A DNA stretch of 64,000 bases from Ostreococcus lucimarinus (lineage: Eukaryota). Positions 11,401-63,966 of this stretch are shown here, piece after piece (positions within the stretch are counted from its first letter, which is position 1; every line of letters begins with the position of its first letter). Where the stretch lies: the NCBI GenBank assembly GCA_000092065.1, contig CP000583.1. One strand, given 5' to 3'. A program made the position numbers and the translations under genes. The notes below the pieces were generated by a model. The model was not told the DNA's origin, made no database searches, and saw only the letters and a program-made list of their open reading frames with translations.

Positions 11401-12205
11401 GCGCGACGGCGTAATACGCGCGATCCTTCCCGCGACGTGCAAGCTCATTCAACTTGGCGATGTACTCCAAGTTGCTTATCGCTCCCACGCGCCAAGCCGA
11501 CGTGAGATGTCGCGCGCTCGTCTCGACGGTTTGCCTTTGCTTCAGGCTCGCCGCCATCACTTCGATTTCTCGACAAGGTCCGACCTCACCATCGCGTGCG
11601 TGCGGCGAATTATGCATTCCGGACAATTGTACGAACGGCACGCCCACCGCATCGCCGCTCAGCGTGGACAAGCACACGCAGTCGACGCTCAAATTCCCGT
11701 GCGCCAAGTTCTTTTCGTGCGCGTGCGCCAACGCTCGACACAGCTGAAACGCCGCCAAAGACGCCTTCGCCGCGTCGTTCGCGAACGGATTCCCCCCCGA
11801 CCTCAAACACGCTCCGAGTGTGTACTCATAAAAAGGCTCCACCGAGCACACGACGCCATCACCGACGATCACCGCGCACGCCGGCGCGACGTTTGGATGC
11901 GACGATCGAAACGCGCTCGCGCTCGCCCCTCGCCGCGCGCTCATCGCCGCGAAAGCCCTCTCCAGCGCCGACCGCACCGCGTCACAAAACGCATTCACAT
12001 CGCCGCTCGCGTTCGCGATTTCGACGCCGAGCGCGCGCGCGATCTCGCACCGTCGTCGCGTCTCCGCCGTCGTCGCGACGCGCGCCGCGATTCTCAACCG
12101 CGCGCCTCGCGCGTCCTCCAGCACCCCCTCGCCCGCGTCGTCGTCCGCGAATCGCGCGACGACGCCCTCGGGCGCGCATCGCGAGATGACTTCCGACGCG
12201 CGCAT
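8489..12205 (-). CDS. BEACH domain and WD40 repeat protein
   Basis: BEACH motif (WRVGAISNLEYIAKLNELARRGKDRAYYAVAPWVIDF). C-terminal WD40-like repeats. ATG at 12205. Confidence 0.8.
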   Translation of the reverse strand: MRASEVISRCAPEGVVARFADDDAGEGVLEDARGARLRIAARVATTAETRRRCEIARALGVEIANASGDVNAFCDAVRSALERAFAAMSARRGASASAFRSSHPNVAPACAVIVGDGVVCSVEPFYEYTLGACLRSGGNPFANDAAKASLAAFQLCRALAHAHEKNLAHGNLSVDCVCLSTLSGDAVGVPFVQLSGMHNSPHARDGEVGPCREIEVMAASLKQRQTVETSARHLTSAWRVGAISNLEYIAKLNELARRGKDRAYYAVAPWVIDFKEFPFDASTDSLRGARDLSKTKWRLTKGDEQLDFTYRNTTPPHHVSDDCLSELGACIALARRTPRSTLARVVRANFVADEYPKDIARLFEMSPDEAPIDFYLNPNVFTSIHEDMRDLSLPSWSQVGEGSADYFIKIHREALESKAVSDNLHTWIDLTFGYATYGRAAFIAKNVMVRDDEKSKLKSSGRFCIFHAPHPKRSAGEIPRAVPAVNTEDDLCDAVETIIKITEPSLRNVQEKDLRALGRVLGAIYAGAPCPAHSDDTPSSVSGLFNKSPMKSISDGLFDDIDRTQVLFKSLKYWLNRMPVEARDVVKLLMDSPKPIAASAVRDSVLFSTDIRSAAMVLGNLRTAHESRAARIMIADDALKGVSPTVAHLVLGDICPEVESYVGGKPLAAKDEMEVAMCLSSLVVTACGVASRRDVIDMIVPLVLRAVSAPSACLNAEGPTLKRELFDMAVLRALRKATGAATFNRIFIPVLIACLQPKFCSAEEVARVTCGLTFIAKSSPLPVALRRIVDVLRKALKSNRDDTSSGAHVLVADILASLAKSLGPQSEAFIFKASTASAPSVLDHLDEWHQRSSNDRNNAGAWGWLPRDVSDHEEDDETETITMSSVLANAGAVDDDPWRLHVAALTSWRVHSRIARPSAQTLSVSADERLFLTNGVTSRGDNVVRVWRTSGPEGENSSGAMSAYTGHEATVRASMFLDFVNDHEGDVSRACSCDDKGYMHVWNTNSDHIWQFYSRDAGGFESMCVYDGARGSPYVAGGTTNGGVLIADAGAGKIFRQFKCPNDDAASATEVEALHASTDGLVYASNRFGYMCGFDLRTSGVVFDVKAHDGGVNKIVSPSSKSYEILTASDDMTVALWDVRMIDTRGDAKKRFDGRVRTFRGHQHEVRDIAVSTKGDVFSVSGATIGVFALTSSGNEKVARFSPLSVYGEQTPFCAIQLLSSSRLFATLRCDGVLSVCR

Positions 12206-12637
12206 CGCCCGCGTCGTCGTCCTCGTCGTCGTCGCGCGCGCGTCCGCGTCACCGCCGCGCCAGCGACATCAGCGCCTCCCACAGCGCGTACGCGCACAGC
12301 GCGCCGATCAAACACAGCGGCACCGCCTGCGCGCTCGCGCACGCGCGCTTCCGTCGGACGTCGTCCACGAGCGCGGTCTCGTCGTCGACGAACGTCGCCC
12401 GCGGCATTGTGACGCCGCGCGCGGCAGTTTCCGACGCGGAATCGCCTCGACGCGACGCCGTGCGCGCGCCGAACGCGTCGCGCGCGACGCGAACGAACGG
12501 AACGCGCGCGCGCGCGTCGCGCGCGAGCGCGCGAGCGCGCGACGACGCGGCGAGGACGCGGCGACGTGGGAAGAAGTCGAGTTCGTTAGTAGGGGATCGA
12601 ATCGGACGCGGGAAGAAGTCGACGCGAGGACGACGCC

Positions 12638-13783
12638 ATGCGGCGACGGGAAGGCGCGGGACGACGGCAGAGTGAACTCGCGGAAGAGATCCGACGGCGG
12701 TCGAGCGATCTGCTGAAGAGCGCGAAGAAACGACCGAAGGCGGTGATGCGGCGCGCGGTGACGGGGAACGCGGATACGCGAGTGCGCGACTACGTCAAGA
12801 TTCCGCGCGTGATACGACAGATCGATAAGGTGTCGTTTTGCGCGGGTGTGTATGGGTTGATGATGACGGAATACATCGCGACGCGCGCGCCGGAGAAGTT
12901 TTGGTTGTTTTACGCGGTGGCGATGCCGGGGGTGTTTTTGGCGAGAGCGGTGTATTATCGAATGATTCGTTGGCAATACTTTTTGTACGATTTCTGTTAC
13001 TTTGCCAACGCCTCGGCGATGATGTTTCTGTGGCGATGGAAGAAGAGCGCGACGGTGTTTCGGTGCATCTTCGCGTTCGCGAACGGGCCGGTGTTGTTGG
13101 CGATTCCGTTATGGAGAAACTCGTTGGTGTTTCACAGCGTGGACAAGGTGTCGAGCATTTTCGTGCACGCGATGCCGTGCTTGATGACTTGGTGCGGTCG
13201 GTGGTACGGGTTTGGGAACGATGTGAATAGGCTGAGTGTGCGAGAGTTGGGCGCGGACGTGAGCGTTCTCACGGGATGTTTGGATCTCATGGTGTACCCG
13301 ATGTTCGCGTACTTGTTTTGGCAGGCGCTGTATTTGGCAAAGACGGAACTCATCGACAGAGTGAAGTTAGTGAGCGATCCGGCGCTCATGACTTCGCTGC
13401 GTTGGCTTGCGAGCGATCGAAACTCATCGGCGAATAAATACGCGTTGAAGATGATGCGCGGCATCGGATTGTTCGGCGCGGACGAGTTCTTCGACGCTGA
13501 ATCCATCAAGACGAAATTCGTCTTCGTCATGCTCCAGCTCGGGTACACCATCGTCACCTTCATCCCCATCCCGCTCTGTTACTCGAATTACTACGCCCAT
13601 ACCGCTCTCATGTGGGCCGCGTTCGGGTCATCGGTGTACAACGGCGCGGTGTATTACATCGACGTCTTTTCGCGCCGCTACGTCGAACGTCTCGCCATGG
13701 CGGAAGAATTAGAACGAGACTCACAAAGTCCCGGACTCTCCGAGTCCGAAATCGATCGATTGATGATGACCCCGATAGATTGA
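12638..13783 (+). CDS. Multi-pass membrane protein, DUF2838/GPC1 (glycerophosphocholine acyltransferase)-like
   Basis: Several aromatic-rich TM helices (YYRMIRWQYFLYDFCYFANASAMMFLW...). Family assignment is from memory and of moderate reliability. Confidence 0.4.
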   Translation: MRRREGAGRRQSELAEEIRRRSSDLLKSAKKRPKAVMRRAVTGNADTRVRDYVKIPRVIRQIDKVSFCAGVYGLMMTEYIATRAPEKFWLFYAVAMPGVFLARAVYYRMIRWQYFLYDFCYFANASAMMFLWRWKKSATVFRCIFAFANGPVLLAIPLWRNSLVFHSVDKVSSIFVHAMPCLMTWCGRWYGFGNDVNRLSVRELGADVSVLTGCLDLMVYPMFAYLFWQALYLAKTELIDRVKLVSDPALMTSLRWLASDRNSSANKYALKMMRGIGLFGADEFFDAESIKTKFVFVMLQLGYTIVTFIPIPLCYSNYYAHTALMWAAFGSSVYNGAVYYIDVFSRRYVERLAMAEELERDSQSPGLSESEIDRLMMTPID

Positions 13784-14051
13784 TGCACGCGATCGATGAG
13801 ATGGTTTGTCGTAAAATTTGTCGTGAAAACGCGCGCGAAATCGTCGCGACGCCGCGCGCCCGACCCGACGCCGAGAAGCGCGTTCCCGCGCCCTCAGCCC
13901 TCGTCGAAGACTTCGCCCGCCTCGTCCGCCGTCGCGTCGCCCGCCGGCTCGCGCTCGCCCTCTCGCTCCCACCGTCCGGTTTATCGACTAGTACATCGCG
14001 TCTACGCATAACAACAATCGATTCGGTCGCGTCTACGCTCTCGCGCGCGCC

Positions 14052-14321
14052 CTAGCTCGGCGCGTTCCCTTGCGCCCCCAACATCTGCCCCACGATCGCC
14101 ACGCTCTCCCAGTACTTCGCCGCGCACCGATCCACGCACGAGTTCTCCCCCACGTTCAGTTCGCCGTCCTTGAACTTCTTATCGATGCACTTCTCGTAGC
14201 ACGCGCCCACGAGCTTGTTGAACAGCTCCACGCGGTACTCCATCTCTTGTCCAGCCATGGCGAACGCCGCGTCGCGCTGTTCGGGCGTCATCGTCGGCGC
14301 GCCCTGTCCCGTCTGCGACAT
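14052..14321 (-). CDS. Small Tim (Tim8/Tim13 family) mitochondrial intermembrane-space chaperone
   Basis: Twin CX3C motif (GACYEKCIDK...SCVDRCAAKYWE). ATG at 14321 (MSQTGQG...). The upstream ORF-track extension is in a CpG tract. Confidence 0.8.
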   Translation of the reverse strand: MSQTGQGAPTMTPEQRDAAFAMAGQEMEYRVELFNKLVGACYEKCIDKKFKDGELNVGENSCVDRCAAKYWESVAIVGQMLGAQGNAPS

Positions 14322-14471
14322 CGCGGTTTCTCTCGCCGCTCTCGCGTCGCGTCGTTCGCGTCGCTCGCTCGATCCGGCGTCGTCCGTCGTCCGTCGCGGC
14401 GTCGTCTGGCGGTCGCGCCGCCGCCGCGGCGTCGCGGTGGTTCGTCGCGCGCGCGTCGACCCTCGCGTCAC

Positions 14472-14509
14472 GGTTCGATTTTCGCGATCGAACCTCGACG
14501 CGTCGATCG
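14472..14509. promoter_or_regulatory. Conserved hairpin + palindrome element, copy 1 (Tim13/MFS divergent promoter)
   Basis: GGTTCGATtttcgcgATCGAACC is an 8-bp stem with a 7-nt loop. It is followed by CTCGACGCGTCGATCG, which contains the perfect palindrome TCGACGCGTCGA. A near-identical copy lies at 20088. Confidence 0.5.
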
Positions 14510-14725
14510 CCGCGCGTCGAGCGCGTCGATCGCGCGCGCGACAAAGAGACGCGCTGACTGTTTGCCCACACGCGAGTTCGACGCGCGCGCGAGGGGACCG
14601 ACGCGGCGGCCCGCACTCGACGTCGCGCGCGCGTCGCGGCGACGAGCGCGCGGCGGGAGGCGCGGGAGACGCGTCCGCGAGACGCGCGTCGACGCGGCGA
14701 TTCGATCGACGCGCGCGCGGGCGCG

Positions 14726-16462
14726 ATGGCGAGCGCGCGCGCGGGACTCGGCGGTCGGTCGTTAGGCGGCGACGGCGACGCGCGACGCGCGACGCGCGCG
14801 CGCGCGCGGATGCGCGGCGCGAGGCGCGACGGGAGACGCAGCGCGCGCGTCGAGCGCGCGCGCGCGACGGGAGGGACGCGCGCGCGCGACGGCGCGATGG
14901 GGCGCGCGAGAGGGGGACGCGGGGAGGAGGCGCGAGAACGCGGCGACGTCGCGGCGCGCGCGAGAGCCGAACGACGCGATCGACGGGACGCGGTCGCGGC
15001 GAGCGGGAGCTCGAAGACGACGCGCGAGGATCGGGACGAGGGCGAGGAGGATCCGGACGAGGCGTGGGCGTTTGAGTTTCCGAAGTCGGCGAGCGACGTC
15101 ACGACGCTCTGGCGAGGCGCGCCGAGTCGGTATCGCGTGCTCTTCGTCACGGTGTTCGCGTTCATCGTGTGTAACATGGATAAGGTGAATATTTCGGTGG
15201 CGATCATTCCCATGGCGCGGGAGTTCGGGTGGACGAGCACGCAGGCGGGGTTCGTGCAGAGCGCGTTTTTTTACGGTTTCGCGGCGTCGCAGTTACCGGG
15301 CGGGTACTTGTCGACGAAATTCGGTGGTGCCAAGGTGTTGCCGATCGGGATGTTGATTTTGTCGTTGGCGACGATCGCGATTCCGATCGTCGGCGTGAAC
15401 GAGCAGAGCATTTTCCTGTCGCGCGTGCTCGTGGGTTTGGGCGAAGGCGTGGCGCCGAGCGCGGCGACGGATATCATCGCGAGAAGCGTCAGCGTGGGCG
15501 AGCGTTCGCGCGCCGTCGGGTTCGTGTTCAGTGGGTTCAACATAGGTTCGGTGCTTGGTTTGGGGGTGGCGCCACTATTGATAGAGGCGACGAATTGGAG
15601 GACGGTGTTCGCATTCTTCGGCTCGTGCGGTTTAGTTTGGAGTTTTTGGGCTTGGAAGCTGTACGGCGACGGCGGGATGGTTGACGAAAGTTACAAGGAC
15701 GACGGCGTCACGGGTTTGACGGGTAAGCGCATATTCACCGTCGACGCAAAGGCGATAGCGAGCGGGAAGAGCCCGGCGGAAGACCCTCCGGTGCCGTGGG
15801 GGGAGTTTATATCGAATCCGTCGGTGCGCGCGCTCATGTACGTGCACTTTTGCAACAACTGGGGCTTCTACGTCCTACTCGCTTGGCTTCCGACGTACTT
15901 TACCGACGAGCTCGGGGTGACACTGACGAACGCATCGCTGTTGACTCTGCTTCCGCCGCTCGCGAACGTCGCGATGGCGTCCGTCGCCGGTCCGACTGCG
16001 GACCGCCTCATCGGCAGCGGCATGGAGATCACGAAGGTGCGTAAAACGATGCAAGCAGTCGCCTTCATGGGACCGGCGCTCGCCATGGGCTCGGCCGCAT
16101 TGGTAGATCAGCCGGTGGCGACCGTGGGTCTGCTCACGCTCGGCCTTTCGCTAGGCGCGTTTTCGTACGCGGGTTTGTACTCAAACCATCAAGATTTGTC
16201 GCCCAAGTACGCGAGTATCCTGTTGGGCATGACAAACACGTGCGGCGCGCTTCCGGGCGTCATCGGCGTTCCGTTGACTGGGTACTTGATCAAAGAAACG
16301 GAAAATTGGGAGCTTAGCATGTTCGTTCCGGCGATGTTCTTCTACTTTACGGGAACGCTCGTATTCAGCAAGTACGGCAGCGGCGATCGACAAGCGTTCA
16401 CGGGACAACCTATGCCCGAACCAGGCGAGATTCCGCCATCGTGCGATGGCGGCGGACATTAA
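14726..16462 (+). CDS. MFS anion transporter, SLC17/PHT4-like
   Basis: MFS signature regions (MDKVNISVAIIPMAREFGWTSTQAGFVQSAFFYGFAASQLPGGYLSTKFGGAKVL). 12 predicted TM segments. Arg-rich N-terminus may be a transit peptide or spurious. Confidence 0.7.
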   Translation: MASARAGLGGRSLGGDGDARRATRARARMRGARRDGRRSARVERARATGGTRARDGAMGRARGGRGEEARERGDVAARARAERRDRRDAVAASGSSKTTREDRDEGEEDPDEAWAFEFPKSASDVTTLWRGAPSRYRVLFVTVFAFIVCNMDKVNISVAIIPMAREFGWTSTQAGFVQSAFFYGFAASQLPGGYLSTKFGGAKVLPIGMLILSLATIAIPIVGVNEQSIFLSRVLVGLGEGVAPSAATDIIARSVSVGERSRAVGFVFSGFNIGSVLGLGVAPLLIEATNWRTVFAFFGSCGLVWSFWAWKLYGDGGMVDESYKDDGVTGLTGKRIFTVDAKAIASGKSPAEDPPVPWGEFISNPSVRALMYVHFCNNWGFYVLLAWLPTYFTDELGVTLTNASLLTLLPPLANVAMASVAGPTADRLIGSGMEITKVRKTMQAVAFMGPALAMGSAALVDQPVATVGLLTLGLSLGAFSYAGLYSNHQDLSPKYASILLGMTNTCGALPGVIGVPLTGYLIKETENWELSMFVPAMFFYFTGTLVFSKYGSGDRQAFTGQPMPEPGEIPPSCDGGGH

Positions 16463-20284: not shown

Positions 20285-21715
20285 ATGGCGTCGACGCACG
20301 CGTGCGCGTCGCGATTGACGGCGAGACGCGCGGGGAGTTTGAATGGTAAGGTTTTGCGGGCGCGCGCGACGGGCGGGGCGCGCGCGCGACGGGCGTGCGA
20401 GGCGAGGGCGGAGATCAAGGAGATCTTCATGCCGGCGCTGTCGTCGACGATGACGGAGGGGAAGATCGTGAGCTGGTTGATGGGCGAGGGGGACGCGATC
20501 GGGAAGGGGGACGCGGTCGTGGTCGTGGAGAGCGACAAGGCGGACATGGACGTGGAGTCGTTCGTGGATGGAATCATCGCGCACATCGCGGTCGGGGACG
20601 GGGAGGTGGCGACCGTGGGAGCGCCGATCGCGTACGTCGTCGATAGCGAGAGCGAGATCGAGGAGGCGAAGGCGAAGGCGGGCGGCGCGCCGGCGCCGGC
20701 GCCGGCCGCGCCGGCGGCCGCGGCGCCCGCGCCGGCGCCGGCGCCGGCGGCGCCCGCGCCGGCGGCGGCGGCGGCGGCGCCTGCACCGGCGGCGCCGGCG
20801 GCGCCGGCCGCGCCGGTGGCTTCCGGTCGCGTCGTCGCGACGCCGTACGCGAAGAAGCTCGCGAAGAAGCACAAGGTTGACCTCAAGACGCTCGCCGGTA
20901 CGGGCTTGAATGGCCGCATCACCGCGGTGGACATCGAGAACGCCGCGGGCTTGCCGCCGACGCCGAAGGCTGGCGCCGCGCCTGCCCCGGCAGCGGCCGC
21001 GGCCGCCGCACCGAAGAAGGCGGCCGCCGTCGCGCCTCCGGCGCCCGCCGGCACCGTCGTGCCGCTCTCGGGCATGCAAGCCGCCGTCGCGAAGAACATG
21101 TTGCCGTCTCTCTCAGTTCCGGTCTCCCGCATCGCGATGAGCATCTGCACCGACGAGTTCGACAAGTTGTACGCCACTCTCAAGCCGAAGGGTGTGACGA
21201 TGACCGCCTTGCTCACCAAGGCTGTCGGCGTCGCGCTCGCGCAGCACCCGATCATGTACTCCACCTACCACGACGGTAAGGGCATCGTGTACAACGACAA
21301 GGTGAACATCGCCGTCGCCGTTGCGCTCGATGATGGTTTGATCACGCCAGTCTTGAACGACACCGCCAACACCGATGTCTACCAACTCGGCCGCGAATGG
21401 AGCGGGCTCGTGAAGAAGGCGCGCAGCACTGGCTTGTCCCCGGCTGACTACGCCGGCGGTAACTTCACCATCTCCAACCTCGGCATGTTCGGCGTCGACC
21501 AATTCGACGCCATTCTCCCACCGAACCAAACCGCGATCCTGGCCGTCGGCTCTTCCAAGAAGACCGTCGTCCCGGTTGGTGGCATGATTGGCGTCAAGAG
21601 CTTCATGACGGTCAACATCGTCGCCGACCACCGTCACGTCAACGGTAACGTCGCGGCTGACTTCGGCAAGACTTTGCGCGAAGTGATCGAAAACCCTAGC
21701 AACCTGACGCTTTAA
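20285..21715 (+). CDS. Dihydrolipoamide acetyltransferase (pyruvate dehydrogenase E2), likely organellar
   Basis: Lipoyl domain (MPALSSTMTEGKIVSWL...VVVVESDKADMDVES). Ala/Pro linker. Catalytic DHRHVNG motif. ATG 20285 (MASTHACASRL..., transit-peptide-like). Confidence 0.9.
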   Translation: MASTHACASRLTARRAGSLNGKVLRARATGGARARRACEARAEIKEIFMPALSSTMTEGKIVSWLMGEGDAIGKGDAVVVVESDKADMDVESFVDGIIAHIAVGDGEVATVGAPIAYVVDSESEIEEAKAKAGGAPAPAPAAPAAAAPAPAPAPAAPAPAAAAAAPAPAAPAAPAAPVASGRVVATPYAKKLAKKHKVDLKTLAGTGLNGRITAVDIENAAGLPPTPKAGAAPAPAAAAAAAPKKAAAVAPPAPAGTVVPLSGMQAAVAKNMLPSLSVPVSRIAMSICTDEFDKLYATLKPKGVTMTALLTKAVGVALAQHPIMYSTYHDGKGIVYNDKVNIAVAVALDDGLITPVLNDTANTDVYQLGREWSGLVKKARSTGLSPADYAGGNFTISNLGMFGVDQFDAILPPNQTAILAVGSSKKTVVPVGGMIGVKSFMTVNIVADHRHVNGNVAADFGKTLREVIENPSNLTL

Positions 21716-48912: not shown

Positions 48913-50154
48913 ATGGCGGGATGCGCGAAGATGACGGTGGCGGTGCTGAAGGAGGAACTGAAGAAGCGCGGATTGGACGCGACGGGGCTGAAGGCGGCGC
49001 TCGTGGCGCGATTGGAGGAAGCGATGGCGGGCGAGGACGACGGGGCGGCGGCTGAGGCGGCGGCGCCGGAGGAGGAAGAGGCGAAGGAAGAGCCGAAGGA
49101 AGAGGCTGGGGAGGAAGAGGACGTGCGAGCGAAGGCGGAGGAAATGGCGGAGAAGGCCATGGCGGAGCACGCGGCGAGCGAGAAGAAACGCGAGCGATCT
49201 CCCGAACAAGACGACGCGCCTCCGGAGGCGAAGAGCGCGAAGTCGGACGGCGAACACGCCGCGGCGCCGAGCTCGGCGCAGGGTGGCCTGACCAAGGATG
49301 GGCAAAATCTCGCCACGTATGAGATGCCGGACGGTCAAGTGCGCAAGGACGTGCCGACGCAAGGCAACGAAGGGCGCATCATCGGTCGCGGCGGCTCAAA
49401 GATTCGTGAATTACAAGACATGTTCCGAACGCGCATCACCATGAACCGACCGGCGGGTTTGGCTGAAGTTGTCGGTATGTTGGATCACGTGAACGATTGC
49501 TGCGACGAAATCACTCGTATTGTCGAGGACGGTAACGTCCGCGAAGCTGCCGAGCGCGCGGGTCAGCCCGTCCCGGGCGGCGCCTATAGCTCGTACGGTG
49601 GCGGCGGCTTCGGCGGCGGCGGCGGCGGCTTCGGCGGCGGCGGCTTCGGCGGTGGCGGCGGCGGCGGCGGCGGCGGTCCTTTCAGCGGCCATATGGAACG
49701 CGTCCCGTGCGAAGGTCAAGAGGGGCGCATCATCGGCCGCGGCGGGGAAAATATTCGTCGCGTCGAGTCCCAAACCGGCACTCGCATCAAGATGAACCGC
49801 GTCGACAACGTCGCCGAAGTGTACGGTACCCCGGCGCAGTGCACCGAAGCCGTGCGCATGATCCAAGAGTACATTCACACCGCGCCGAACCGCGGTGGTG
49901 GTGGCTTTGGCGGCGGCGGGTTTGGTCAACAAGGCGGCTACGGCGGCGGGTACCAGCAGCAAAGCTTCGGCCAGCAAGCCGGCTACGGCGGCGGATACCA
50001 GCAGCAAGCCGGCTACGGCCAACCGGCGTACGGCGCCCCGGCGGGCGGTGCGCCGCTCCCGCACGGCTGGGAGGAAGTCAACCCGGGTAACGGTGGGCCA
50101 GTGTATTATTGGGACACGGTTTCGAACACAACGACCTACACTCGCCCGACGTGA
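48913..50154 (+). CDS. RNA-binding protein with SAP, two KH domains, Gly-rich (GGF/GGY) region and C-terminal WW domain
   Basis: SAP domain (TVAVLKEELKKRGLDATGLKAALVARLEE). KH domains (EGRIIGRGGSKIRELQ; EGRIIGRGGENIRRVE). GGFGGGG tract. WW domain (LPHGWEEV...YYWDTVSNTTTYTRP). Confidence 0.7.
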   Translation: MAGCAKMTVAVLKEELKKRGLDATGLKAALVARLEEAMAGEDDGAAAEAAAPEEEEAKEEPKEEAGEEEDVRAKAEEMAEKAMAEHAASEKKRERSPEQDDAPPEAKSAKSDGEHAAAPSSAQGGLTKDGQNLATYEMPDGQVRKDVPTQGNEGRIIGRGGSKIRELQDMFRTRITMNRPAGLAEVVGMLDHVNDCCDEITRIVEDGNVREAAERAGQPVPGGAYSSYGGGGFGGGGGGFGGGGFGGGGGGGGGGPFSGHMERVPCEGQEGRIIGRGGENIRRVESQTGTRIKMNRVDNVAEVYGTPAQCTEAVRMIQEYIHTAPNRGGGGFGGGGFGQQGGYGGGYQQQSFGQQAGYGGGYQQQAGYGQPAYGAPAGGAPLPHGWEEVNPGNGGPVYYWDTVSNTTTYTRPT

Positions 50155-52210: not shown

Positions 52211-55200
52211 CTACAGTACGGACTCAAGAGACCGGTTGGGGGGCAGCAGATCAGCCATTTCGCTCTTCAAACGCTCGAGAGCGTCCGCGTACGAAATGTG
52301 CGCGTTCTCTGTCTTTTTGCTCAACAACCTCCGCCAGCGAGCAAACAATGCCTCCAACGTTCGGGCACTACGAACGTAAGGAAGCACGACTTCCCACACG
52401 TACCGCATATTTTCCGTGCCCAGCCAGGTTGTTCTGTCCACCTGGAACGCACCCGCGCCGCCGCCTTTTTCGGCGAGCGCGGCCAAGGCGAACGCGATGA
52501 CGGCGTCTTCGAGGTCCGACCACATAAGATCGCCGGACCGCGTCTCGCCGTGCTCGTCGATGAGTCGCTTCGCGTTCTCGAGGAGCGCCTTGGCCTGAGC
52601 GTCGAGCGTCGCTTTTTTGTCCCTCTCTTTGGGCTCGATGTCCTCGTACTTCGCCGTTTCGCTCTTCAAACGCTCGAGAGCGTCCGCGTACGAAATGGAA
52701 TTGTTCTCTGTCTTTTTGCTCAACACCTTCCGCCAGCGAGCACACAATGCCACCGGCATTCGGCCACTACGAACGTAAGGAAGCACGACTTCCCACACGT
52801 ACCGCATATTTTCCGTGCCCAGCCAGGTTGTTCTGTCCACCTGGAACGCACCCGCGCCGCCGCCTTTTTCGGCGAGCGCGGCCAAGGCGAACACGATGAC
52901 GGCGTCTTCGAGGTCCGACCACATAAGCTTGCCGGACCGCGTCTCGCCGTGCTCGTCGATGAGTCGCTTCGCGTTCTCGAGGAGCGCCTTGGCCTGAGCG
53001 TCGAGCGTCGCTTTTTTGTCCCTCTCTTTGGGCTCGATGTCCTCGTACTTCGCCGTTTCGCTCTTCAAACGCTCGAGAGCGTCCGCGTACGAAATGGAAT
53101 TGTTCTCTGTCTTTTTGCTCAACACCTTCCGCCAGCGAGCACACAATGCCTCCGACGTTCGGGCACTACGAACGTAAGGAAGCACGACTTCCCACACGTA
53201 CCGCATATTTTCCGTGCGCAGCGCGGTTGTTCTGTCCACCTGGAACGCACCCGCGCCGCCGCCTTTTTCGGCGAGCGCGGCCAAGGCGAACGCGATGGCG
53301 GCGTCTTCGAGGTCCGACCACATAAGATCGCCGGACCGCGTCTCGCCGTGCTCGTCGATGAGTCGCTTCGCGTTCTCGAGGAGCGCCTTGGCCTGAGCGT
53401 TTAGCGTCGCCTCCGTACTCGCCCCCACTTCAGGGCGGAGCACGTATTTTTCAGCAATGCTCGCGTACTTGGCGTCGTATGTGTCTCCGTTCGCCGCGGC
53501 GAGAAGAACGCCAAAAATCAGGCGACGCATGTTCAATTGTTTGCCCGCGCGTGCGTCGACATCGCTGTACGCAGCCGCGAAGTTCTCTTTCGAGAATTTT
53601 GCGACATCGACTTTTTTGTCCGTCGATTCCATGCGACTTCGCCAGAACGTTATGAACCATGTGATTGGGGCGGACAAGCCCCCTCGAAGCAACTCTCGTA
53701 ATTGTCGTGCATTGATTGCGTCACTCTCGCGGGCGGATGCGGTTTCCACGCGCGCTACCGAACGCGCTTCCTCGGGTGAAAGCGTACCCTCGGCGCTGTG
53801 AATCAAAACGAGTAGTGAACGCAGCGCCTGCGGATACCGAATCCAATGAGCGACGAGTCGTCCGCTCAAGGCGTCACCGTACTGTGATGTCTTCGTGTGC
53901 ATCTTCGTGATCCTATATAGCTCCATGTAGACCGCCTTACTTGGCAGAATTATTTCTGCGTCGCGAAACCAAATTTCCAGCGCCGCTTCGAGACGGTCGG
54001 GTTGGCTTCGGCAAGCTTCTCCCAGGAACGCCGTAAGGAATTCCTTGTTACCCAGCGAATCGATGAGAGCGCGCGCATGACCGCCGTTTGCGTCAAAACG
54101 GAGCAAGTCTCGAAATAACGAGAGGATTGCGCCGTCTTCAATGTCGCACGCCTTCTCGTCGCCGCCGAAGAAGCGCGCCGTGAGCGACCGCGAGGACGGC
54201 TGCGCGCCCGATCCATTTCCGTTCGAGACCGCCTCGGCGCCCGCCAAAAGATCGACAAAGGCACTCCAAAAGTTTTGCGTGAAGAAAACGAGCAGCCGAT
54301 TTACTAGGTCAGGCGAGACTGTCGAGTCGGCAAAGATCGTCTCGTGACGTGCGAGCACTATGCTGCTCATGGTGCGTACCGCAGTCGCGGCGCGGTCGGT
54401 GTCTTCTCCGTAACAGCGCAGCACCCACGGGTTTGTGGCGAAGCCGGCAGTGTCTGCCATGGAGACGACCGGCACCTTGCGGTGACCGGCGATGCGAATG
54501 CCCGGCGTCGCTCGGTTCAAGGCCCACGTCGAACCCAGCTCGATCCACGTTTTCAGAAAATAGGTCCAGACTATTTCAACAAACATTCCATCGAACGCGC
54601 CCAGAGCAGCGAGCGCGTGCATTCGTACGTATTTCGGCTTGTTCGACTTGTGCGTCGCGCGGTACTCGAGGACAAAGGCCACGAATGCGCTGAGCAGTCG
54701 TCCCATTCGACGTCTCGTCGGGTGAGTGATGGCGTGGAACCGGACGTTGGCGTCGACGATAGGTTCCCAGCACTTTGATGGATTGCCGCTCACCGTGAAG
54801 TCGACGTAACGGACGAGCGTGTTGTCTCTCGCTCGAATGTGCGCTTGCTGCGCGTTGTCGCCGTCACTAATGAGGTAGTTTCGATGCTCTCCCAAGCGTG
54901 TTGAAAACCAGCGCTCCGATTCGCCGACGTACGCGCCTTCATCGGACCGCACCAGCCACACGTACGCGTTGACCGGCTCAGCGTACAACCTCGCCTTCAG
55001 GTCGCCGCGCGAGTCGCGATGTTCTCGAGACTTCAACCAATTCGATAACGTTCGTAGGTGCTCCATGAGTTCTAGCGCCCCCGACTTGTCGTCACCCAGC
55101 GTCTCGCCGACGTCGTAAAATTGCTCCACAAAAAAAGCCGGGACGTGCGTCGTACTAAAGTACGTGTGGCGCCAGGTTGACGTGTCCGCTAGATGTCCCG

Positions 55201-56821
55201 CAACTGAGGCGTCTTGAGTATCTCTGCGCTGCGCGCCGATGATGTCGCCGCTGAGCGTTTGGATGGGTGTGTCGGCGCCGCTCACCCAGCCAGGCACGCG
55301 AGCGACTTCTCGTAGGAAGGATTTGATGCTTTCGTCGCTGGCATCCTTCGGGTCGAAGGCGTCCTTGAATCCAACGAGAGGGAAGCACTCGCAGCGGTCG
55401 AGAAAAGTTAACATGGCGTCCTTCGCCTTGGACATGTTGTCCCCATCGGCGAGCCACTGCTCGGCGTCGAGCACGAACTCCTCTAAAACGGGAGACAAGT
55501 TCGCCTCGAAGTGGACGTCAAGCACCCCGCGAATCTTTGCGTTTGCGTCGTACATAGCCTTCGCGCTCCCTGCGATCGCGGGACCTACGAATCGTCGCGC
55601 GCGCGATTCCAGCGAATCATCTGAAACCTCCACCGCCGGCGCCGGGGACGGCGTCGCCGGTTTATGGGTTTGGCGACAATGGTCTAGAATTTCGCGTCGC
55701 CAATCGGTCATCTTAATAGAGCCGAATTTGGCGCGCACGTGCGCGACCTCTGCCCCTTCCCCTTCCTTCTCCTCTTCCCCTTCTTCTTCCCCTTCCCCTT
55801 CGTCTTCGTGTTCGTCTTCGTCTTCGTGTGCATCTTCGTCTTTGTCTTCGACGAATCCGTCTGCGAGTGGGGCGAACAAGTTACCGCGCGACTTGGCGCG
55901 ACGACGCGGGCGACACGCCCGCCCCGTGTGCAACTCTCGTACCGTGCCACCCGGCGACTGCTCGTGCTGCGCATCACTCTCGGCGTAGGTCGGCGAGGCG
56001 TGAAATTGTGCGGCTCGCTTGCCTGTCGCCGCCAGGATCGGAGGACTCTGCGGTTCGTCGTCACCGACCGCGTGCGCTGATGCCATCATTCGACACAAGG
56101 CGACGTCCATCGCCGTTCTCTCAATGATTTGGTCCGCATCGGCGCGGCCGCGCAACATCGCTCCGAGCGTGCCCTGAACGTCGTTCCGAGCTCGTTGAAG
56201 CGTCTCTTCGTCGGGTTCGTCGGGTTCGTCGGGTTCGGCGGGCGCGGTGCGCGGTTCGATCGATTCGTAGTGCATCTGCGCACGCTCGCCACCGCTGAGA
56301 ACGAGCGTTACGTCGATCGTAGCCTCTTCCGGCTCGATGATGACGTCGGCGTCTCCGTCGGGCGTCGCAGACAAACTGTCCGATATTACGCGCACGCGCA
56401 TCTTGTGCACGTCGGCCAACGCCATGAGCGAGAATTCGTCGCCCCACTTGCCCCCGAGCTGACCCAGGCTTGCGCACTCGGCCAGAAACTCCTCGCGTAT
56501 CTCACCCTCACTGAGATCTTCACGTCCTGCACCGTTCGCTGTATCGAGAAAACCGATGCGCACCGGCACTATATCGTCGTCGTCGACGCGACGCTCCAAC
56601 CAGGCCGCGGCTTGGTGGCGTAAAAGTTCCACCGACACTTCGCGTTCGGGATCGGTTCGTCCTATGGCGGCGACAATCGCGTGGAACTGGCAGTCGCCCC
56701 CGCCCTCGGTGGTGACTCTCTGGACGCGCTCACGGATGAGGCGCCGCTCCAACCGACCTAGTCGCGCTTCGCCGTAGAGGCGCGGGTGACGTTTTCCCCA
56801 CTCCGCGAGAACGTCTGCCAT
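52211..56821 (-). CDS. Giant OTU-domain (deubiquitinase-like) protein with acidic tract and triplicated C-terminal 133-aa module
   Basis: OTU Cys box (GGGDCQFHAIVAAIG) and His box (QMHYESI) near the N-terminus. Poly-D/E tract. About 1000 aa of unassigned sequence. Three near-identical C-terminal repeats. First ATG 56821; the ORF extends to 56854 with a non-ATG. Confidence 0.65.
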   Translation of the reverse strand: MADVLAEWGKRHPRLYGEARLGRLERRLIRERVQRVTTEGGGDCQFHAIVAAIGRTDPEREVSVELLRHQAAAWLERRVDDDDIVPVRIGFLDTANGAGREDLSEGEIREEFLAECASLGQLGGKWGDEFSLMALADVHKMRVRVISDSLSATPDGDADVIIEPEEATIDVTLVLSGGERAQMHYESIEPRTAPAEPDEPDEPDEETLQRARNDVQGTLGAMLRGRADADQIIERTAMDVALCRMMASAHAVGDDEPQSPPILAATGKRAAQFHASPTYAESDAQHEQSPGGTVRELHTGRACRPRRRAKSRGNLFAPLADGFVEDKDEDAHEDEDEHEDEGEGEEEGEEEKEGEGAEVAHVRAKFGSIKMTDWRREILDHCRQTHKPATPSPAPAVEVSDDSLESRARRFVGPAIAGSAKAMYDANAKIRGVLDVHFEANLSPVLEEFVLDAEQWLADGDNMSKAKDAMLTFLDRCECFPLVGFKDAFDPKDASDESIKSFLREVARVPGWVSGADTPIQTLSGDIIGAQRRDTQDASVAGHLADTSTWRHTYFSTTHVPAFFVEQFYDVGETLGDDKSGALELMEHLRTLSNWLKSREHRDSRGDLKARLYAEPVNAYVWLVRSDEGAYVGESERWFSTRLGEHRNYLISDGDNAQQAHIRARDNTLVRYVDFTVSGNPSKCWEPIVDANVRFHAITHPTRRRMGRLLSAFVAFVLEYRATHKSNKPKYVRMHALAALGAFDGMFVEIVWTYFLKTWIELGSTWALNRATPGIRIAGHRKVPVVSMADTAGFATNPWVLRCYGEDTDRAATAVRTMSSIVLARHETIFADSTVSPDLVNRLLVFFTQNFWSAFVDLLAGAEAVSNGNGSGAQPSSRSLTARFFGGDEKACDIEDGAILSLFRDLLRFDANGGHARALIDSLGNKEFLTAFLGEACRSQPDRLEAALEIWFRDAEIILPSKAVYMELYRITKMHTKTSQYGDALSGRLVAHWIRYPQALRSLLVLIHSAEGTLSPEEARSVARVETASARESDAINARQLRELLRGGLSAPITWFITFWRSRMESTDKKVDVAKFSKENFAAAYSDVDARAGKQLNMRRLIFGVLLAAANGDTYDAKYASIAEKYVLRPEVGASTEATLNAQAKALLENAKRLIDEHGETRSGDLMWSDLEDAAIAFALAALAEKGGGAGAFQVDRTTALRTENMRYVWEVVLPYVRSARTSEALCARWRKVLSKKTENNSISYADALERLKSETAKYEDIEPKERDKKATLDAQAKALLENAKRLIDEHGETRSGKLMWSDLEDAVIVFALAALAEKGGGAGAFQVDRTTWLGTENMRYVWEVVLPYVRSGRMPVALCARWRKVLSKKTENNSISYADALERLKSETAKYEDIEPKERDKKATLDAQAKALLENAKRLIDEHGETRSGDLMWSDLEDAVIAFALAALAEKGGGAGAFQVDRTTWLGTENMRYVWEVVLPYVRSARTLEALFARWRRLLSKKTENAHISYADALERLKSEMADLLPPNRSLESVL
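52264..53440 (-). repeat. Three tandem copies of a 399-bp unit (about 99% identical) inside the OTU-protein CDS
   Basis: Antisense ORFs 52368..52745 and 52767..53144 are identical apart from 2 residues. A third copy follows from 53166. The protein module ATLDAQAKALLENAKRLIDEHGETRSG...ISYADALERLKSE occurs three times. Confidence 0.9.
55752..55860 (-). repeat. GAA/GAG-rich simple repeat encoding a poly-Glu/Asp tract in the OTU protein
   Basis: cccttccccttccttctcctcttcc... on the plus strand, translated on the minus strand as EDEDEHEDEGEGEEEGEEEKEGEG. Confidence 0.8.
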
Positions 56822-56854
56822 GCCTCCCCGCCTCGTCTCCGCCTCGTCTGTCAC

Positions 56855-58600
56855 GCTTCCCCGTTCCGTCGGATGCGAAAACTTTCAAGAATGTGTTTTG
56901 ATATCACCCTTCTTTCCAGGGTAGAAACGCGCGTCAGTCGCGTCGTCGTCGTCGCCGCCTCGCGCGAACCTCGCGCGAACGTGTCCCTTCGCCTCCGAGG
57001 ACGCAATCGCTCGTGCGCGCGCGCGTTCGTCGCCGCGCGCGTTCGCCGCGGACGCGGCGGAGAGAACGCACGACGTTTTTCGTGACACGCGCTCGACACG
57101 CGCGCACCGCTCGCGCGCTTCCGACGCGCGCGTGGGCGGTTTCGAGCGCGCGGCGCGATCGTCCCTCGTTTCTCCGTAACGCATCGACGCTCGAGATGCG
57201 CGAACGAGACGCACGACGACGTACCGCTACCGCTACCGCTGCCGCAACCGCTATCGCGTACGCGCGCTCGCTGCGTGCTCGCTTCTTGCAATCGCGAGAA
57301 AGTGCGGCCACGAACGAGCGCCGGGTTCCTTCTGGATGAAAACGCCGATTCGTTGACCCGCCCGCCTCCCTTTTTCTGTTTTTTGCTTTTCGCCGCGATG
57401 TTTTCGCGCTTGAGAACCCGAAGCCGAGGACCGCGCCGAATCGACGCTCGCACGGGCGCCGACGCGCGTCGATCGGCGCGGCGCGATCGCGCAATCGCGC
57501 GAACGCGCGTCGACGCGCGTTCGTCGACCCCGCGATCGCGCGAACGGACGCGCGCGCGCGCGAACGCGCGCCATTCCCGACGCTCGCGCGTCGTTAACAA
57601 CGTCGCGTTCTTCGCACGCGCGCGTGGATTCGCGCGACGTGCGACGTCGGGCGCGCGCGAGCGCGCGCGACACGCGTCGATGACGGCATCGCGCGCGCGC
57701 CGACGCGCGCTGGACGCGCGGCGCGCGGAACGCGCGCCGTCGTCGCGAGTAATGTCGCGAATCGCCGCGCGCGGCGACGCGCGCGCGGCGTCGCACACGC
57801 GGGTGTGCGCGCCGTCGCACAAAGCGCTCGGCGACGCATTATACGAGCGGCGCGTCGGCGCGACGCCGCGTCGCGCGCGGTCGCGGACGAGCGCGTGCGA
57901 GCGGGGCGTTCGGAAGCGTGACGGGTGCGGACGCGTCGCGCGCGTCGTTCGCGCGGATGCGCGCGCGCGCGACGCGACGACGCGCGCGCGAATGTACGAC
58001 GATCGATTCGCGACGCTCGCGCGACGCGCTGGGCGTCGCGCGAGCGCCGCGCGGACGCGCGCTCGAGCGCGATGCGCGCGGCGATCGCGAAGACGAAACC
58101 TCGCTCGATCGCGCGCGCGCCTCGAACGCGCGCGCGCGTTCGGCGCCGAACGCGCAGCGCGCTGTGTCGCGCGCGCGCGGACGCTCGACGTGCAGATCGC
58201 CGCGCGCGCGATAAGGGTAAGTTCGTCGCGCGCGCGTCGGACGACGCGCGCGCGGCGATTTTCCGTGCGCGCGACGCGCGTTTCGCGCGTAGCGGCGCGC
58301 GCGGCGCGCGCTTCGACCGCGAAGCGCTCGATGCGCGCGCGCGCTCGAGCGAGGTTGCGTCTTCGCGACGCGCGCGACGATGCCTCGCGCGCGTCGCGCG
58401 CCGTCGCGCGCCGAACCGGCGCGCGACGCGAGCGCGAACGGCGTCCCGCCGACGCGCACTGCGCTGTTTGCGCCCACCGTGGAGACCGGCGACCGCTTCC
58501 GCGTCGACGCGAGCGTGCGAACGCACACCGCTGAAGGCGGGCGAGCGTGGACCCCGTACTCGCCGGGGCGCGACGACGCGCCGTGCGTGGTCGGGTTCGG
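56855..58600. repeat. About 1.7-kb CpG-dense, T-poor low-complexity tract (degenerate CGCGCGA/GACGCG repeats) between divergent genes
   Basis: The tract is nearly devoid of stop-forming triplets, so both strands give long Arg/Ala ORFs. There is no protein-like composition. Confidence 0.7.
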
Positions 58601-59939
58601 CGTCGTTCAAGCGGACTCTCGCATCGCATCCGAATACGACGAAGAATTGCGCAAAGCGCGCAAGTTGCGGCGAAAGCTCGGCCTAGAGCTCGTGATGGAT
58701 GTGCGCTACGCCCGAAATCGCGGGACGGTGCAGACGACCATGTCCGTGGAGACGTTCATCGATGGCGCGGGCGCCGCCGGGACGATCTTCGGGACTCGAA
58801 GTCAAAGATTCAGATTCGTCGAAAACGCGATTCGACGGCGATACCCGCGGCGCGCGCGCGCGCAAGACGACGACGACGGCCCTCCGTGCGACGCGGACGC
58901 CGCCGTCGCGTGGCTGCTCCGACAACCGCACGATTCGCGAGACAGTATCCTCGTCGAATTCGATCGCGATACCGTGCGCAAGCCTTCGTTTCCGTATCGC
59001 GTGGTGTACGAGAGCGAGTCCGGCGACGAAGGCGCGTTCGGATGCGCGCTCACGGAAGCTGAGTTCGCCGACTGGTTAGGCGGTTGGCGTCCGCCGCCGG
59101 CCGCGAATCTCGACGAATTCTTCGCGATCCTGCGGACGATGAACGTCGATTTGAGCGGCATCGATACCGTCAGGACGCGGTGGCTATGTTTTGAAATTGG
59201 CAGTGGATGGGCGAACGTGTCCCTGGCTTTAGCGGAAACGCTCGGCGACGACGTATTGTGCATCGCGATGGACCCGAAGGAAGGGCTGGAATCGACACGC
59301 GCGAAGAACCACCCGCGCGTGCTCATTCTTAACGAAGACGTGTGGGATGCCCAATTCTTCATGGACGTCAGAAGAGCCACCGCTGGGCGCGTGCTTCACG
59401 CGCACGCGTCGCCGCTGTGTAAGTATTACTCCACGGAGCAGCGCCCGAGGCGAAAAAATCTACGCGACCGCGGATTGCAGCACGTGATTGATGAAGAGCT
59501 GCTGCACGCAGACTCCATGGTGACTGTGGAAGTCGACACGTTACGACTGCTAAATCCGCTTAGCATCAGCGTGGAGAACCCGCACAACGACGCGGATGGC
59601 ATCGGCTCGCGATGCGATCTCTTGTCCGACGTGTACGCAATGCTCGACTTCCTCGTGAGGTGGAGCGTGAGCTACTGCCACTTCACAAAGGGCGAGATAC
59701 GGAAGCACACCGACCTGTACGTCACCCGCAATCTGTACGACGTCATGAAAGAGGCGAAATGGAAGGGCCTGTGCACGTCGAGGTCGCCGTGCGCGTACCG
59801 TCGCCGATCGGGGGCGAGGCAGCACAAGTCTGGCGTTCAAAACCAAAAGGGATCGGCGAAAAAAGGGAGAATCCCTTTAGCGCTCGCTCGCGACCTCGCC
59901 AAGCACGTCGGCGTTCTCAAGACGGGCGTCGCGCGTTGA
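58380..59939 (+). CDS. Divergent DNA (cytosine-5) methyltransferase-like protein (DNMT6-like?), tentative
   Basis: Motif I-like LCFEIGSGWANVSLA. Catalytic PC-like HASPLCKYYS. Motif VI-like ISVENPHND. The 5' part of the ORF lies in the CpG tract, so the true start may be downstream (for example near MDVRYARNRG). Confidence 0.4.
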   Translation: MPRARRAPSRAEPARDASANGVPPTRTALFAPTVETGDRFRVDASVRTHTAEGGRAWTPYSPGRDDAPCVVGFGVVQADSRIASEYDEELRKARKLRRKLGLELVMDVRYARNRGTVQTTMSVETFIDGAGAAGTIFGTRSQRFRFVENAIRRRYPRRARAQDDDDGPPCDADAAVAWLLRQPHDSRDSILVEFDRDTVRKPSFPYRVVYESESGDEGAFGCALTEAEFADWLGGWRPPPAANLDEFFAILRTMNVDLSGIDTVRTRWLCFEIGSGWANVSLALAETLGDDVLCIAMDPKEGLESTRAKNHPRVLILNEDVWDAQFFMDVRRATAGRVLHAHASPLCKYYSTEQRPRRKNLRDRGLQHVIDEELLHADSMVTVEVDTLRLLNPLSISVENPHNDADGIGSRCDLLSDVYAMLDFLVRWSVSYCHFTKGEIRKHTDLYVTRNLYDVMKEAKWKGLCTSRSPCAYRRRSGARQHKSGVQNQKGSAKKGRIPLALARDLAKHVGVLKTGVAR

Positions 59940-60157
59940 GTTTCTACCCGTCAACCCGTGTACGTCGCAAAGCGACCGTTCGAATCCAGCGAGCCTCTCC
60001 GTAAGGTATAGCACACGCATGTTCACCCAGAGACACCCAGTGGCAAAATGGAATTGTTGAAGAGAATGTCAATGGATTGCGAGAGAATGCTACAAGAGTG
60101 CCGCGGCGTTGGCGCAACCCGAGAAGAGGAATCGTCGTCGAGCGTGGTGGTGATGTG

Positions 60158-60265
60158 CTTAAATAAGATATCAATCGCGCTCGAAAGCTTAAATAAGATA
60201 TCAATCGCGCTCGAAAGCTTAAATAAGATATCAATCGCGCTCGAAAGCTTAAATAAGACATCGTG
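60158..60265 (+). repeat. 30-bp tandem repeat cttaaataagatatcaatcgcgctcgaaag, 3.6 copies
   Basis: Perfect copies at 60158, 60188 and 60218, plus a partial fourth copy. The repeat sits inside an AT-richer island. In the 60048..60269 ORF frame it encodes (LNKISIALES)n. Confidence 0.9.
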
Positions 60266-63198: not shown

Positions 63199-63314
63199 TC
63201 ACGGCGAACCCGGCGGCGGCGGCGGCACGTCCACGGCGCCCATCGGCGCGAATCCGATCCCCGACGGCGGCGGCGGCACGTCCACGGCGCCCATCGGCGC
63301 GAATCCGATCCCCG

Positions 63315-63348
<34 letters not shown>

Positions 63349-63966
63349 TCGCCCCGCGCCCCACTCCGTCGGCGGCTCCCCCGGCGGCGGCGGCGGCGGC
63401 GCTTCCTCCTCCTCCGTCTCCCCCCTCCCTCCCGGCGGTTTCGGCGGCACGTCTTCCACCGTCCACGGCTCCACCGCGAACTCGATCTCGTCCCCGCCCC
63501 TCGCGCCCTCCGGCGCCGTCACCGTCACCACCGGCCCGTTTGGAAAAATCTGCGCCCGCGTCTCCCCCCCCGCCCACGCCGTCGGCAGCCGCACCCGCGC
63601 GAACCGCCGTCCATCGTGTTTTTCAAGATCCAAATCGCACGGATCTCCCATCGGCGCCGCCGGGATCCCCGTGATCGTCGCCCGTCCCGCGCGCGCCGCG
63701 CGCGTCCCGCTCGCCGTCCCGCGCGCGCTCCCCCGCGCGCTCGTCAGCCGCAGCGCCGTCGCGCGCAGCGCCGGCGCGCCTCGCGCGCGTCCCGTCGTCG
63801 CCGTCGCCGTCGCCGTCGTCGTCTCGCGCGCGCGCGTCCCATCGCGCGCGTCCTCGTCGCGCGTCTTCGTCGTCGCGCGCGCCGTCTTCGTCGATCGCCG
63901 CGCTGACGCGTCGCGCGTCAGCGCGTCGAAGTACGCCTCGCGCTTCCGTCGCAGGTCGTCCGACAT
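63199..63966 (-). CDS. Proline-rich hypothetical protein with duplicated SGIGFAPMGAVDVPPPP motif
   Basis: ATG 63966. A non-repetitive N-terminal region is followed by polyproline and a 51-bp direct duplication. Confidence 0.3.
63211..63316. repeat. 51-bp direct tandem duplication within the Pro-rich CDS
   Basis: cggcggcggcggcacgtccacggcgcccatcggcgcgaatccgatccccga occurs twice back to back. Confidence 0.85.

Follow-up and report, generated by a model that had tools for sequence, protein, structure and literature searches.

A 399-bp in-frame tandem array with signs of concerted evolution in a lineage-restricted protein gene of Ostreococcus lucimarinus

How do three long repeats within the coding sequence of a single gene come to resemble one another so closely, and does their likeness reflect recent origin, continued exchange or merely the way in which the sequence was assembled? 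The question is raised by contig CP000583.1 of the Ostreococcus lucimarinus genome (GenBank assembly GCA_000092065.1), of which one stretch of 64,000 nucleotides (nt), here called the window, was analysed. A 399-bp unit is repeated within it at the 3' end of a long open reading frame (ORF) on the minus strand. Our results favor the reading that this is a genuine head-to-tail, in-frame triplication (2.9 units), that it encodes three mostly helical modules of 133 residues at the C-terminus of a lineage-restricted, intronless protein of 1536 amino acids (aa), and that the units are homogenised by exchange; we consider this reading probable. As a type the array is ordinary: tandem repeats that lie within genes and evolve in concert are familiar. 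The features on which the argument depends are the following.

52211..56821, minus strand: single-exon coding sequence of 1536 codons plus stop (XP_001416876.1, ABO95169.1, UniRef A4RU04), from ORF translation, exact-sequence look-up and guanine-plus-cytosine (GC) content by codon position
52254..53410, minus strand: the 399-bp tandem array as DNA, 2.9 units, from Tandem Repeats Finder and self-comparison at a lag of 399 nt
53051..53449, minus strand: module N, residues 1125-1257, its first 13 codons (KYVLRPEVGASTE) lying outside the DNA repeat; from in-frame dissection
52652..53050, minus strand: module M, residues 1258-1390; from in-frame dissection
52253..52651, minus strand: module C, residues 1391-1523; from in-frame dissection
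52214-52252, minus strand: 13-aa tail DLLPPNRSLESVL after module C, followed by the stop codon

Among the tandem repeats that Tandem Repeats Finder reports in the window, the array at 52254..53410 is by far the strongest (period 399, 2.9 copies, 96% matches, 0 indels, score 2153). When the sequence is compared with itself at a lag of 399 nt, 18-21 of 21 bases match within the array and 2-10 of 21 elsewhere, a contrast that excludes a chance match. Counted from the list of mismatches, units C and M differ at 18 of 399 nt and units M and N at 13 of 360 shared nt; identity is complete only over sub-stretches, the longest run shared by M and C being 220 nt. A preliminary description of this DNA had placed three units of about 99% identity at 52264-53440. 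The three-unit array is indeed present, but its identity as measured is ~96%, and the coordinates were close, with the low end off by ~10 bp and the high end by ~30 bp.

The array lies in the frame of a minus-strand ORF at 52211..56854 (1547 codons), whose upstream limit, beyond the first methionine (56821), is a GTG (56854). Across this ORF the GC content is 0.64/0.46/0.70 for codon positions 1/2/3, and inside the array it is 0.60/0.44/0.76; the pattern therefore constitutes a coding signature for this frame. The units follow one another head to tail with a period that is a multiple of 3, and the earlier observation that 399 bp equal 133 codons and preserve the frame is borne out, since there are no indels and the units are in frame with the long ORF. 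The array had likewise been placed correctly inside a coding region, but in the wrong reading frame: the ORFs at 52368..52745 and 52767..53144, which had been called antisense, are on the same minus strand as the gene, in another frame whose translation is arginine-rich nonsense. They do differ at 2 residues, as had been stated, and so few differences are found because they span the best-conserved stretch of the repeat. From the methionine at 56821 the product is identical to XP_001416876.1 of O. lucimarinus CCE9901, a 1536-aa 'predicted protein' assigned to a chromosome record of 982,987 bp; the UniRef name of A4RU04 is 'OTU domain-containing protein'. The host gene is already catalogued, unnamed, in a public reference genome, and the 133-aa module is described by no database.

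In the true frame the units differ pairwise at 12 to 22 of 133 residues, and many of the differences are clustered in one patch of the module.

52301..52369, minus strand: variable patch of module C, module residues 95-117, from the mismatch list and the helix positions of an AlphaFold2 (AF2) model
52700-52768, minus strand: equivalent patch of module M
53099-53167, minus strand: equivalent patch of module N

C and M differ at 17 positions inside the array, and by our own count this patch holds 13 of them, nearly all of which change an amino acid, as illustrated by SARTLEALFARWRRLL versus SGRMPVALCARWRKVL at module residues 95-117. Counted by codon, C and M are separated by 12 non-synonymous changes and 1 synonymous change, and the ratio of non-synonymous to synonymous differences (pN/pS) between units is 1.8-3.8 over the shared core (NG86), although with so few changes the ratio does not reach significance. 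Some mismatches lie side by side (52299-52303), a pattern that suggests conversion in patches rather than separate point mutations. The preliminary description had also proposed that the structure of the module be predicted; AF2 returns a six-helix domain (predicted local distance difference test, pLDDT, 70; predicted template modelling score, pTM, 0.68), in which the predicted helix 99-111 overlaps the variable patch.

The evidence that the units do not evolve independently comes from environmental versions of the gene, which were available as a protein cluster at 90% identity (members given here as P-numbers) and as metagenome contigs (L-numbers). Most informative is L011, an 85-kb contig from another project and from a sister lineage, which carries three units at the same positions as the window. 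Identity between L011 and the window is 98.9% in the flank and 97-99.7% over most of the gene body. Within the array, same-position units of the two genomes share only 91.2-92.2% identity, as against 94.8-95.9% among the units of the window; in L011, N and M are 99.2% identical and the other pairs 94.4-94.7%. Units therefore group by genome and not by position. Moreover, 8 sites are fixed between the window and L011 and yet uniform over all three units of each genome, and only 2 sites follow position instead of genome. Since identity within genomes exceeds identity at the same position between genomes, and in view of the 8 fixed sites, the units are, to judge from this comparison, kept similar by exchange that has gone on since the split of the lineages, through gene conversion and/or unequal crossing-over. 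Ongoing gene conversion, one of the explanations offered earlier, thereby gains support. Within each genome the units evolve together, and it is the whole array that diverges from its counterparts in related lineages. The same within-genome pattern is repeated in P0003, the only distant full-length relative (Ostreococcus-like, ~50% protein identity), whose two modules are 80% alike in amino acids and 87% in nucleotides and ~42% alike to the modules of the window.

The remainder of the protein bears on what the array may be doing and on how well the gene is preserved.

56381..56704, minus strand: OTU-like cysteine protease domain, Pfam PF02338, residues 40-147
56678-56704, minus strand: Cys motif GGGDCQFHA
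56261-56278, minus strand: candidate His (HY) motif QMHYES
55937..56065, minus strand: conserved linear motif GDDEPQSPPILAATGKRAAQFHASPTYAESDAQHEQSPGGTVR, 43 residues, from the invariant columns of alignment A1
55754-55849, minus strand: acidic low-complexity stretch
53450..55753, minus strand: central region of ~770 aa (residues ~360-1124), conserved with P0003 in alignment A1
54884-54964 and 54515-54577, minus strand: GIY-YIG-like motif pair in the central region

The match to PF02338 is marginal. With a Pfam cut-off of 23.3 bits, the full-length protein reaches 18.9 bits and P0003 19.3; when the N-terminal 198 aa are searched by themselves, the score rises to 23.7 bits (E 7.4e-5). The motifs GGGDCQFHA and QMHYES are conserved in P0003 and are the predicted catalytic Cys and His motifs. 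As in OTU cysteine proteases and deubiquitinases, the N-terminal 150-190 residues match the profile, albeit marginally, and carry the Cys motif with a later HY motif; unlike in described OTU proteins, some 1350 further residues, the repeated module included, follow without counterpart. For the central region no match was found in Pfam or in PDB sequence searches, and its AF2 model (pLDDT 32) is unusable. Its motif pair (YVW...YVG...R...H, then E...N) has key residues that are invariant in a three-sequence alignment, and GIY-YIG is the sole Pfam family returned for the P0003 fragment. We nevertheless rejected GIY-YIG as an assignment for this region, as PF01541 reaches only 12.3 bits against a cut-off of 22.6 (E 0.22) and does so on the P0003 fragment only, and hhalign against I-TevI found nothing. 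Relatives that share ~50% identity elsewhere have the motif GDDEPQSPPILAATGKRAAQFHASPTYAESDAQHEQSPGGTVR almost unchanged; it lies in a segment that looks disordered, beside the acidic tract.

Our reading should be taken with some caution, since several findings weigh against it. Outside the array, pN/pS relative to L004 (a contig of the same sister lineage as L011) and to L011 is ~0.9-1.1, and L001, the closest environmental allele, has 3 non-synonymous differences and no synonymous one; with such ratios the gene may be under little constraint. The sister lineage is visibly degenerate at this gene: L004 and L011 lack the sequence corresponding to window 56103-56861 (759 bp), and with it the start codon and the whole OTU domain, so that their gene calls read in from upstream in another frame; they have a 2-nt gap, hence a frameshift, within a divergent patch; and their 3' end is replaced by telomere repeats. 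None of the listed members of the protein cluster stems from a transcriptome source. The non-synonymous excess among units is measured against 1 to 2.5 synonymous changes and lacks significance. The variation in unit number described below could be due to collapse in short-read assemblies. As regards the functional part of the reading, the module obtained no significant Foldseek match in PDB or BFVD, no Pfam family attained its threshold on it, hhalign gave 1.5% probability against c-Myb R2R3, and a profile search of 5.8 billion proteins returned only members of its own family, none of them with a Pfam domain.

The alternative that these findings favor most is that the gene was recently inactivated or is drifting neutrally, and that the array, much like a minisatellite, is prone to recombination and serves no purpose in the protein. 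The neutral-looking ratios, the truncated and frameshifted sister alleles and the lack of a transcriptome source all fit with it, as does the narrow range of the family, for which no orthologue was found beyond a few Ostreococcus-type lineages. An exhaustive phmmer search of 1.84 billion representatives gave 11 matches, all within the family, word-indexed searches with single proteins gave three protein clusters only, with one locus per lineage, and neither PDB sequence searches nor a viral contig scan found a relative; as far as these searches reach, the family is confined to those few lineages. Against decay stands the 4.6-kb ORF, which is unbroken and of coding-type GC at third positions in CCE9901 and is likewise uninterrupted in several environmental alleles. 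P0003, moreover, keeps the full architecture and long invariant blocks at ~50% identity (alignment A1), which implies purifying selection over the long term, and the neutral-looking signal may stem mostly from the degenerate sister branch. Decay in CCE9901 is consequently unlikely in our judgement, and we read the gene as dispensable and fast-evolving, but still coding in this strain. As a separate observation, the window at ~54600-55200 is only 85-88% identical to L011 at ~10430-11030, with the 2-nt gap inside; by eye this patch of L011 is nearer to P0003, and a mosaic formed by recombination with a divergent allele is possible.

It could also be argued that the units are alike merely because the triplication is young and arose independently, with no exchange between them, and the ~96% identity together with the perfectly kept period and frame is what a young array would display. 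A very recent expansion had indeed been among the earlier suggestions. The sister lineage, however, shares the three-unit layout and has lineage-specific changes that are common to all of its units, so that parallel triplications in both lineages would be needed if no exchange took place. More distant relatives point in the same direction. P0003, at ~50% identity, has two modules, and P0142, from a third lineage (~40% identity), has a single module with the same linker on both sides. The junctions 'KYV' at the first unit and 'K/EYE' at later units are common to the window, P0003 and P0142, and because of these shared motifs an array of at least 2 units was probably present in the common ancestor. 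We regard a young, independent triplication as quite improbable, and homogenisation of an older array as the better account.

In the environmental contigs the array is also a site of structural change, which takes three forms: unit numbers that differ between assemblies, a break at which telomere repeats follow the array, and the copying of a unit to another chromosome. The break is seen in L004 and L011, where the array runs ~32 bp beyond the end of the third unit, into a would-be fourth, up to '...CCCAAAGAGAGGG'. There it is followed by (TTTAGGG)3, the plant-type telomere repeat (L004 6440-6460; L011 13410-13430), and then by unrelated DNA; in the register of the repeat, this junction falls at window 53020 / 52621. 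The two contigs part from each other some 390 bp farther on, with a p450 gene in one and Bud13 in the other. As the junction is common to two assemblies from different projects it is probably real, and it looks as though the array had broken, the end had been healed with telomere repeats, and other DNA had been joined to it afterwards.

The displaced unit is found at L007 10003-10366, and also in L005, L008, L009 and L010 (contigs up to 99.8 kb), as a solo copy of exactly one period, corresponding to window 52685 to 52284, at 81% identity, with a net 38 nt deleted and the frame shifted. It lies between orthologues of XP_001418226 (100% identical) and XP_001418227, which belong to the 818,664-bp chromosome. 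Both of its ends are at the same repeat phase, as expected if one unit had been excised, for example as a circle, and re-inserted, and the broken L004 array ends in the same 65 nt with which the solo copy begins. A rearrangement of the gene itself is seen in L002, where 8510-15532 aligns with window 52211-59939 and the gene is inverted with respect to the only neighbour that it keeps, the orthologue (48% identity) of the 519-aa gene at 58380-59939; the other flank holds different genes. Synteny of L002 through an inositol-phosphatase gene was considered and rejected, its match being a paralogue of 39% identity and not an orthologue.

Such changes invite the explanation that the gene is a selfish or mobile element, in which an OTU protease, a GIY-YIG-like nuclease and a DNA-binding array act together in the manner of a homing endonuclease. 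The invariant residues of the motif pair, the PF01541 match on the P0003 fragment, the inversion in L002 next to a different flank, and a structurally variable locus from which one unit has moved to another chromosome are all in its favor. However, no terminal inverted repeats were found around the gene, where the inverted matches are all of low complexity and CG-rich; searches of 5.8 billion and of 1.84 billion proteins gave neither a paralogue nor another full-length copy; the viral contig scan gave no relative; the comparison with I-TevI was empty and the structure model of the central region failed; and the dispersed piece is a single array unit, not the gene. We find a selfish origin very improbable, and for the same reasons (no terminal repeats, no dispersed full-length copies, a single dispersed unit) the gene was not classed as that of a transposable element. 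Nor was a phage or bacterial origin retained: the neighbouring ORFs are eukaryotic (BEACH-WD40, SET/PHD/PWWP/SAND, RabGAP), several ORFs of the window match CCE9901 proteins exactly, and neither a megablast search of a phage collection nor the tRNA and Rfam searches gave a match.

The number of units itself differs among environmental versions. Three modules are encoded by P0012 and P0014 (both 1536 aa, each with substitutions of its own), two by P0001, P0006, P0008, P0009 and P0013, and one by P0016 and P0010; mosaics of the reference modules are seen in P0016 (its one module) and in P0006 and P0009 (the second module of each). At the level of contigs, L001 is 99.5% identical to the window with exactly one unit fewer, and L004 has one unit where L011 of the same lineage has three. 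The traced contigs L001 and L004 are MEGAHIT contigs named k141, and all of the copy-number variants come from short-read assemblies; given identical runs of up to 220 nt, collapse is indistinguishable from true variation in these data. With one-, two- and three-unit forms on record, copy-number polymorphism of the array is plausible. The three-unit state, on the other hand, was recovered independently in P0012, P0014 and L011, with the unit-specific variants in the same order across these assemblies, which makes an expansion artefact in the reference unlikely; the CCE9901 genome is, we presume, a finished Sanger-based assembly with reads longer than one unit. That the reference assembly itself expanded or collapsed the array, so that the true number in the strain is not three, as the preliminary description had allowed and as might be feared from near-identical 399-bp units (a classic source of mis-assembly), from the one, two or three and partly mosaic modules of P0016, P0010, P0001 and P0006, and from the discrepancy between L004 and L011, is for these reasons extremely unlikely.

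Each module may be a binding domain that folds on its own, several of them being carried by one protein. A first impression from the sequence pattern, that the module is a Myb/SANT domain, was abandoned, as Pfam, hhalign and Foldseek were all negative. Its scores against helix-turn-helix (HTH) domains (the winged helix of ORC/Cdc6; the Myb-like Reb1, Zeste and TEBP-2) are weak, and the core has no Pfam HTH match. In view of these searches and of the profile search, a DNA-binding role is only a guess. Tentatively, and with more doubt than belief on our part, the modules might partner nucleic acid or chromatin through an HTH-like core, with the variable helix as contact surface, and so tether the OTU and central parts to the target of the protein. 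A bolder proposal, to which we attach very little weight, is that they form a variable nucleic-acid-recognition array, its specificity set by helix 95-117, in a conflict-type protein with an OTU protease and a nuclease-like core, and that the array is a breakage hotspot shedding single 399-bp units, for example as circles, that re-insert. Such shedding would explain the solo copy of exactly one period and the telomere-capped break.

Known repeat systems offer partial parallels. In the FLO/adhesin genes of yeast, intragenic tandem repeats reportedly change in copy number through recombination. The array resembles them in having long, in-frame, head-to-tail units within an ORF that are homogenised within a genome and differ in number between assemblies; it differs in that FLO repeats are low-complexity, Ser/Thr-rich spacers, and here there are only three units of a 133-aa, predicted helical module. 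PRDM9 zinc-finger arrays and TAL-effector repeats consist of near-identical binding modules that differ at contact residues. With these the array shares tandem, near-identical coding units, concerted evolution and mostly non-synonymous differences that are clustered (residues 95-117), but its unit is four to five times longer and its non-synonymous excess is not significant, and the likeness is one of working mode, not of membership.

Other repeats in the window are smaller. A 30-bp repeat of 3.5 copies (98%) at 60157-60262 overlaps the edge of the L004 and L011 alignments, one of 51 bp and 2.4 copies (98%) at 63209-63328 lies inside ORF 63199..63966, and a GC-rich 42-bp repeat of 3.3 copies occupies 20681-20816. 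A (CGG)-type run of 27 units at 49596-49676 is contained in the WW/KH-protein gene at 48913..50154. GC per kilobase ranges from 0.49 to 0.77 over the window; of the long ORFs, BEACH, SET and the OTU gene were checked, and the kilobases that contain them have ~0.52-0.63; the GC-richest stretches are elsewhere.

In conclusion, by comparison of two wild lineages that are very closely related, the presented data offer a clean, small case of concerted evolution in a picoalga that is abundant worldwide. They also point to a protein family, and to a 133-aa module, that only a few genomes of Ostreococcus type possess. Should the different unit counts and the break at telomere repeats prove true, the array would be a convenient marker of structural variation between strains, and the break would exemplify how chromosomes heal at repeats in nature.

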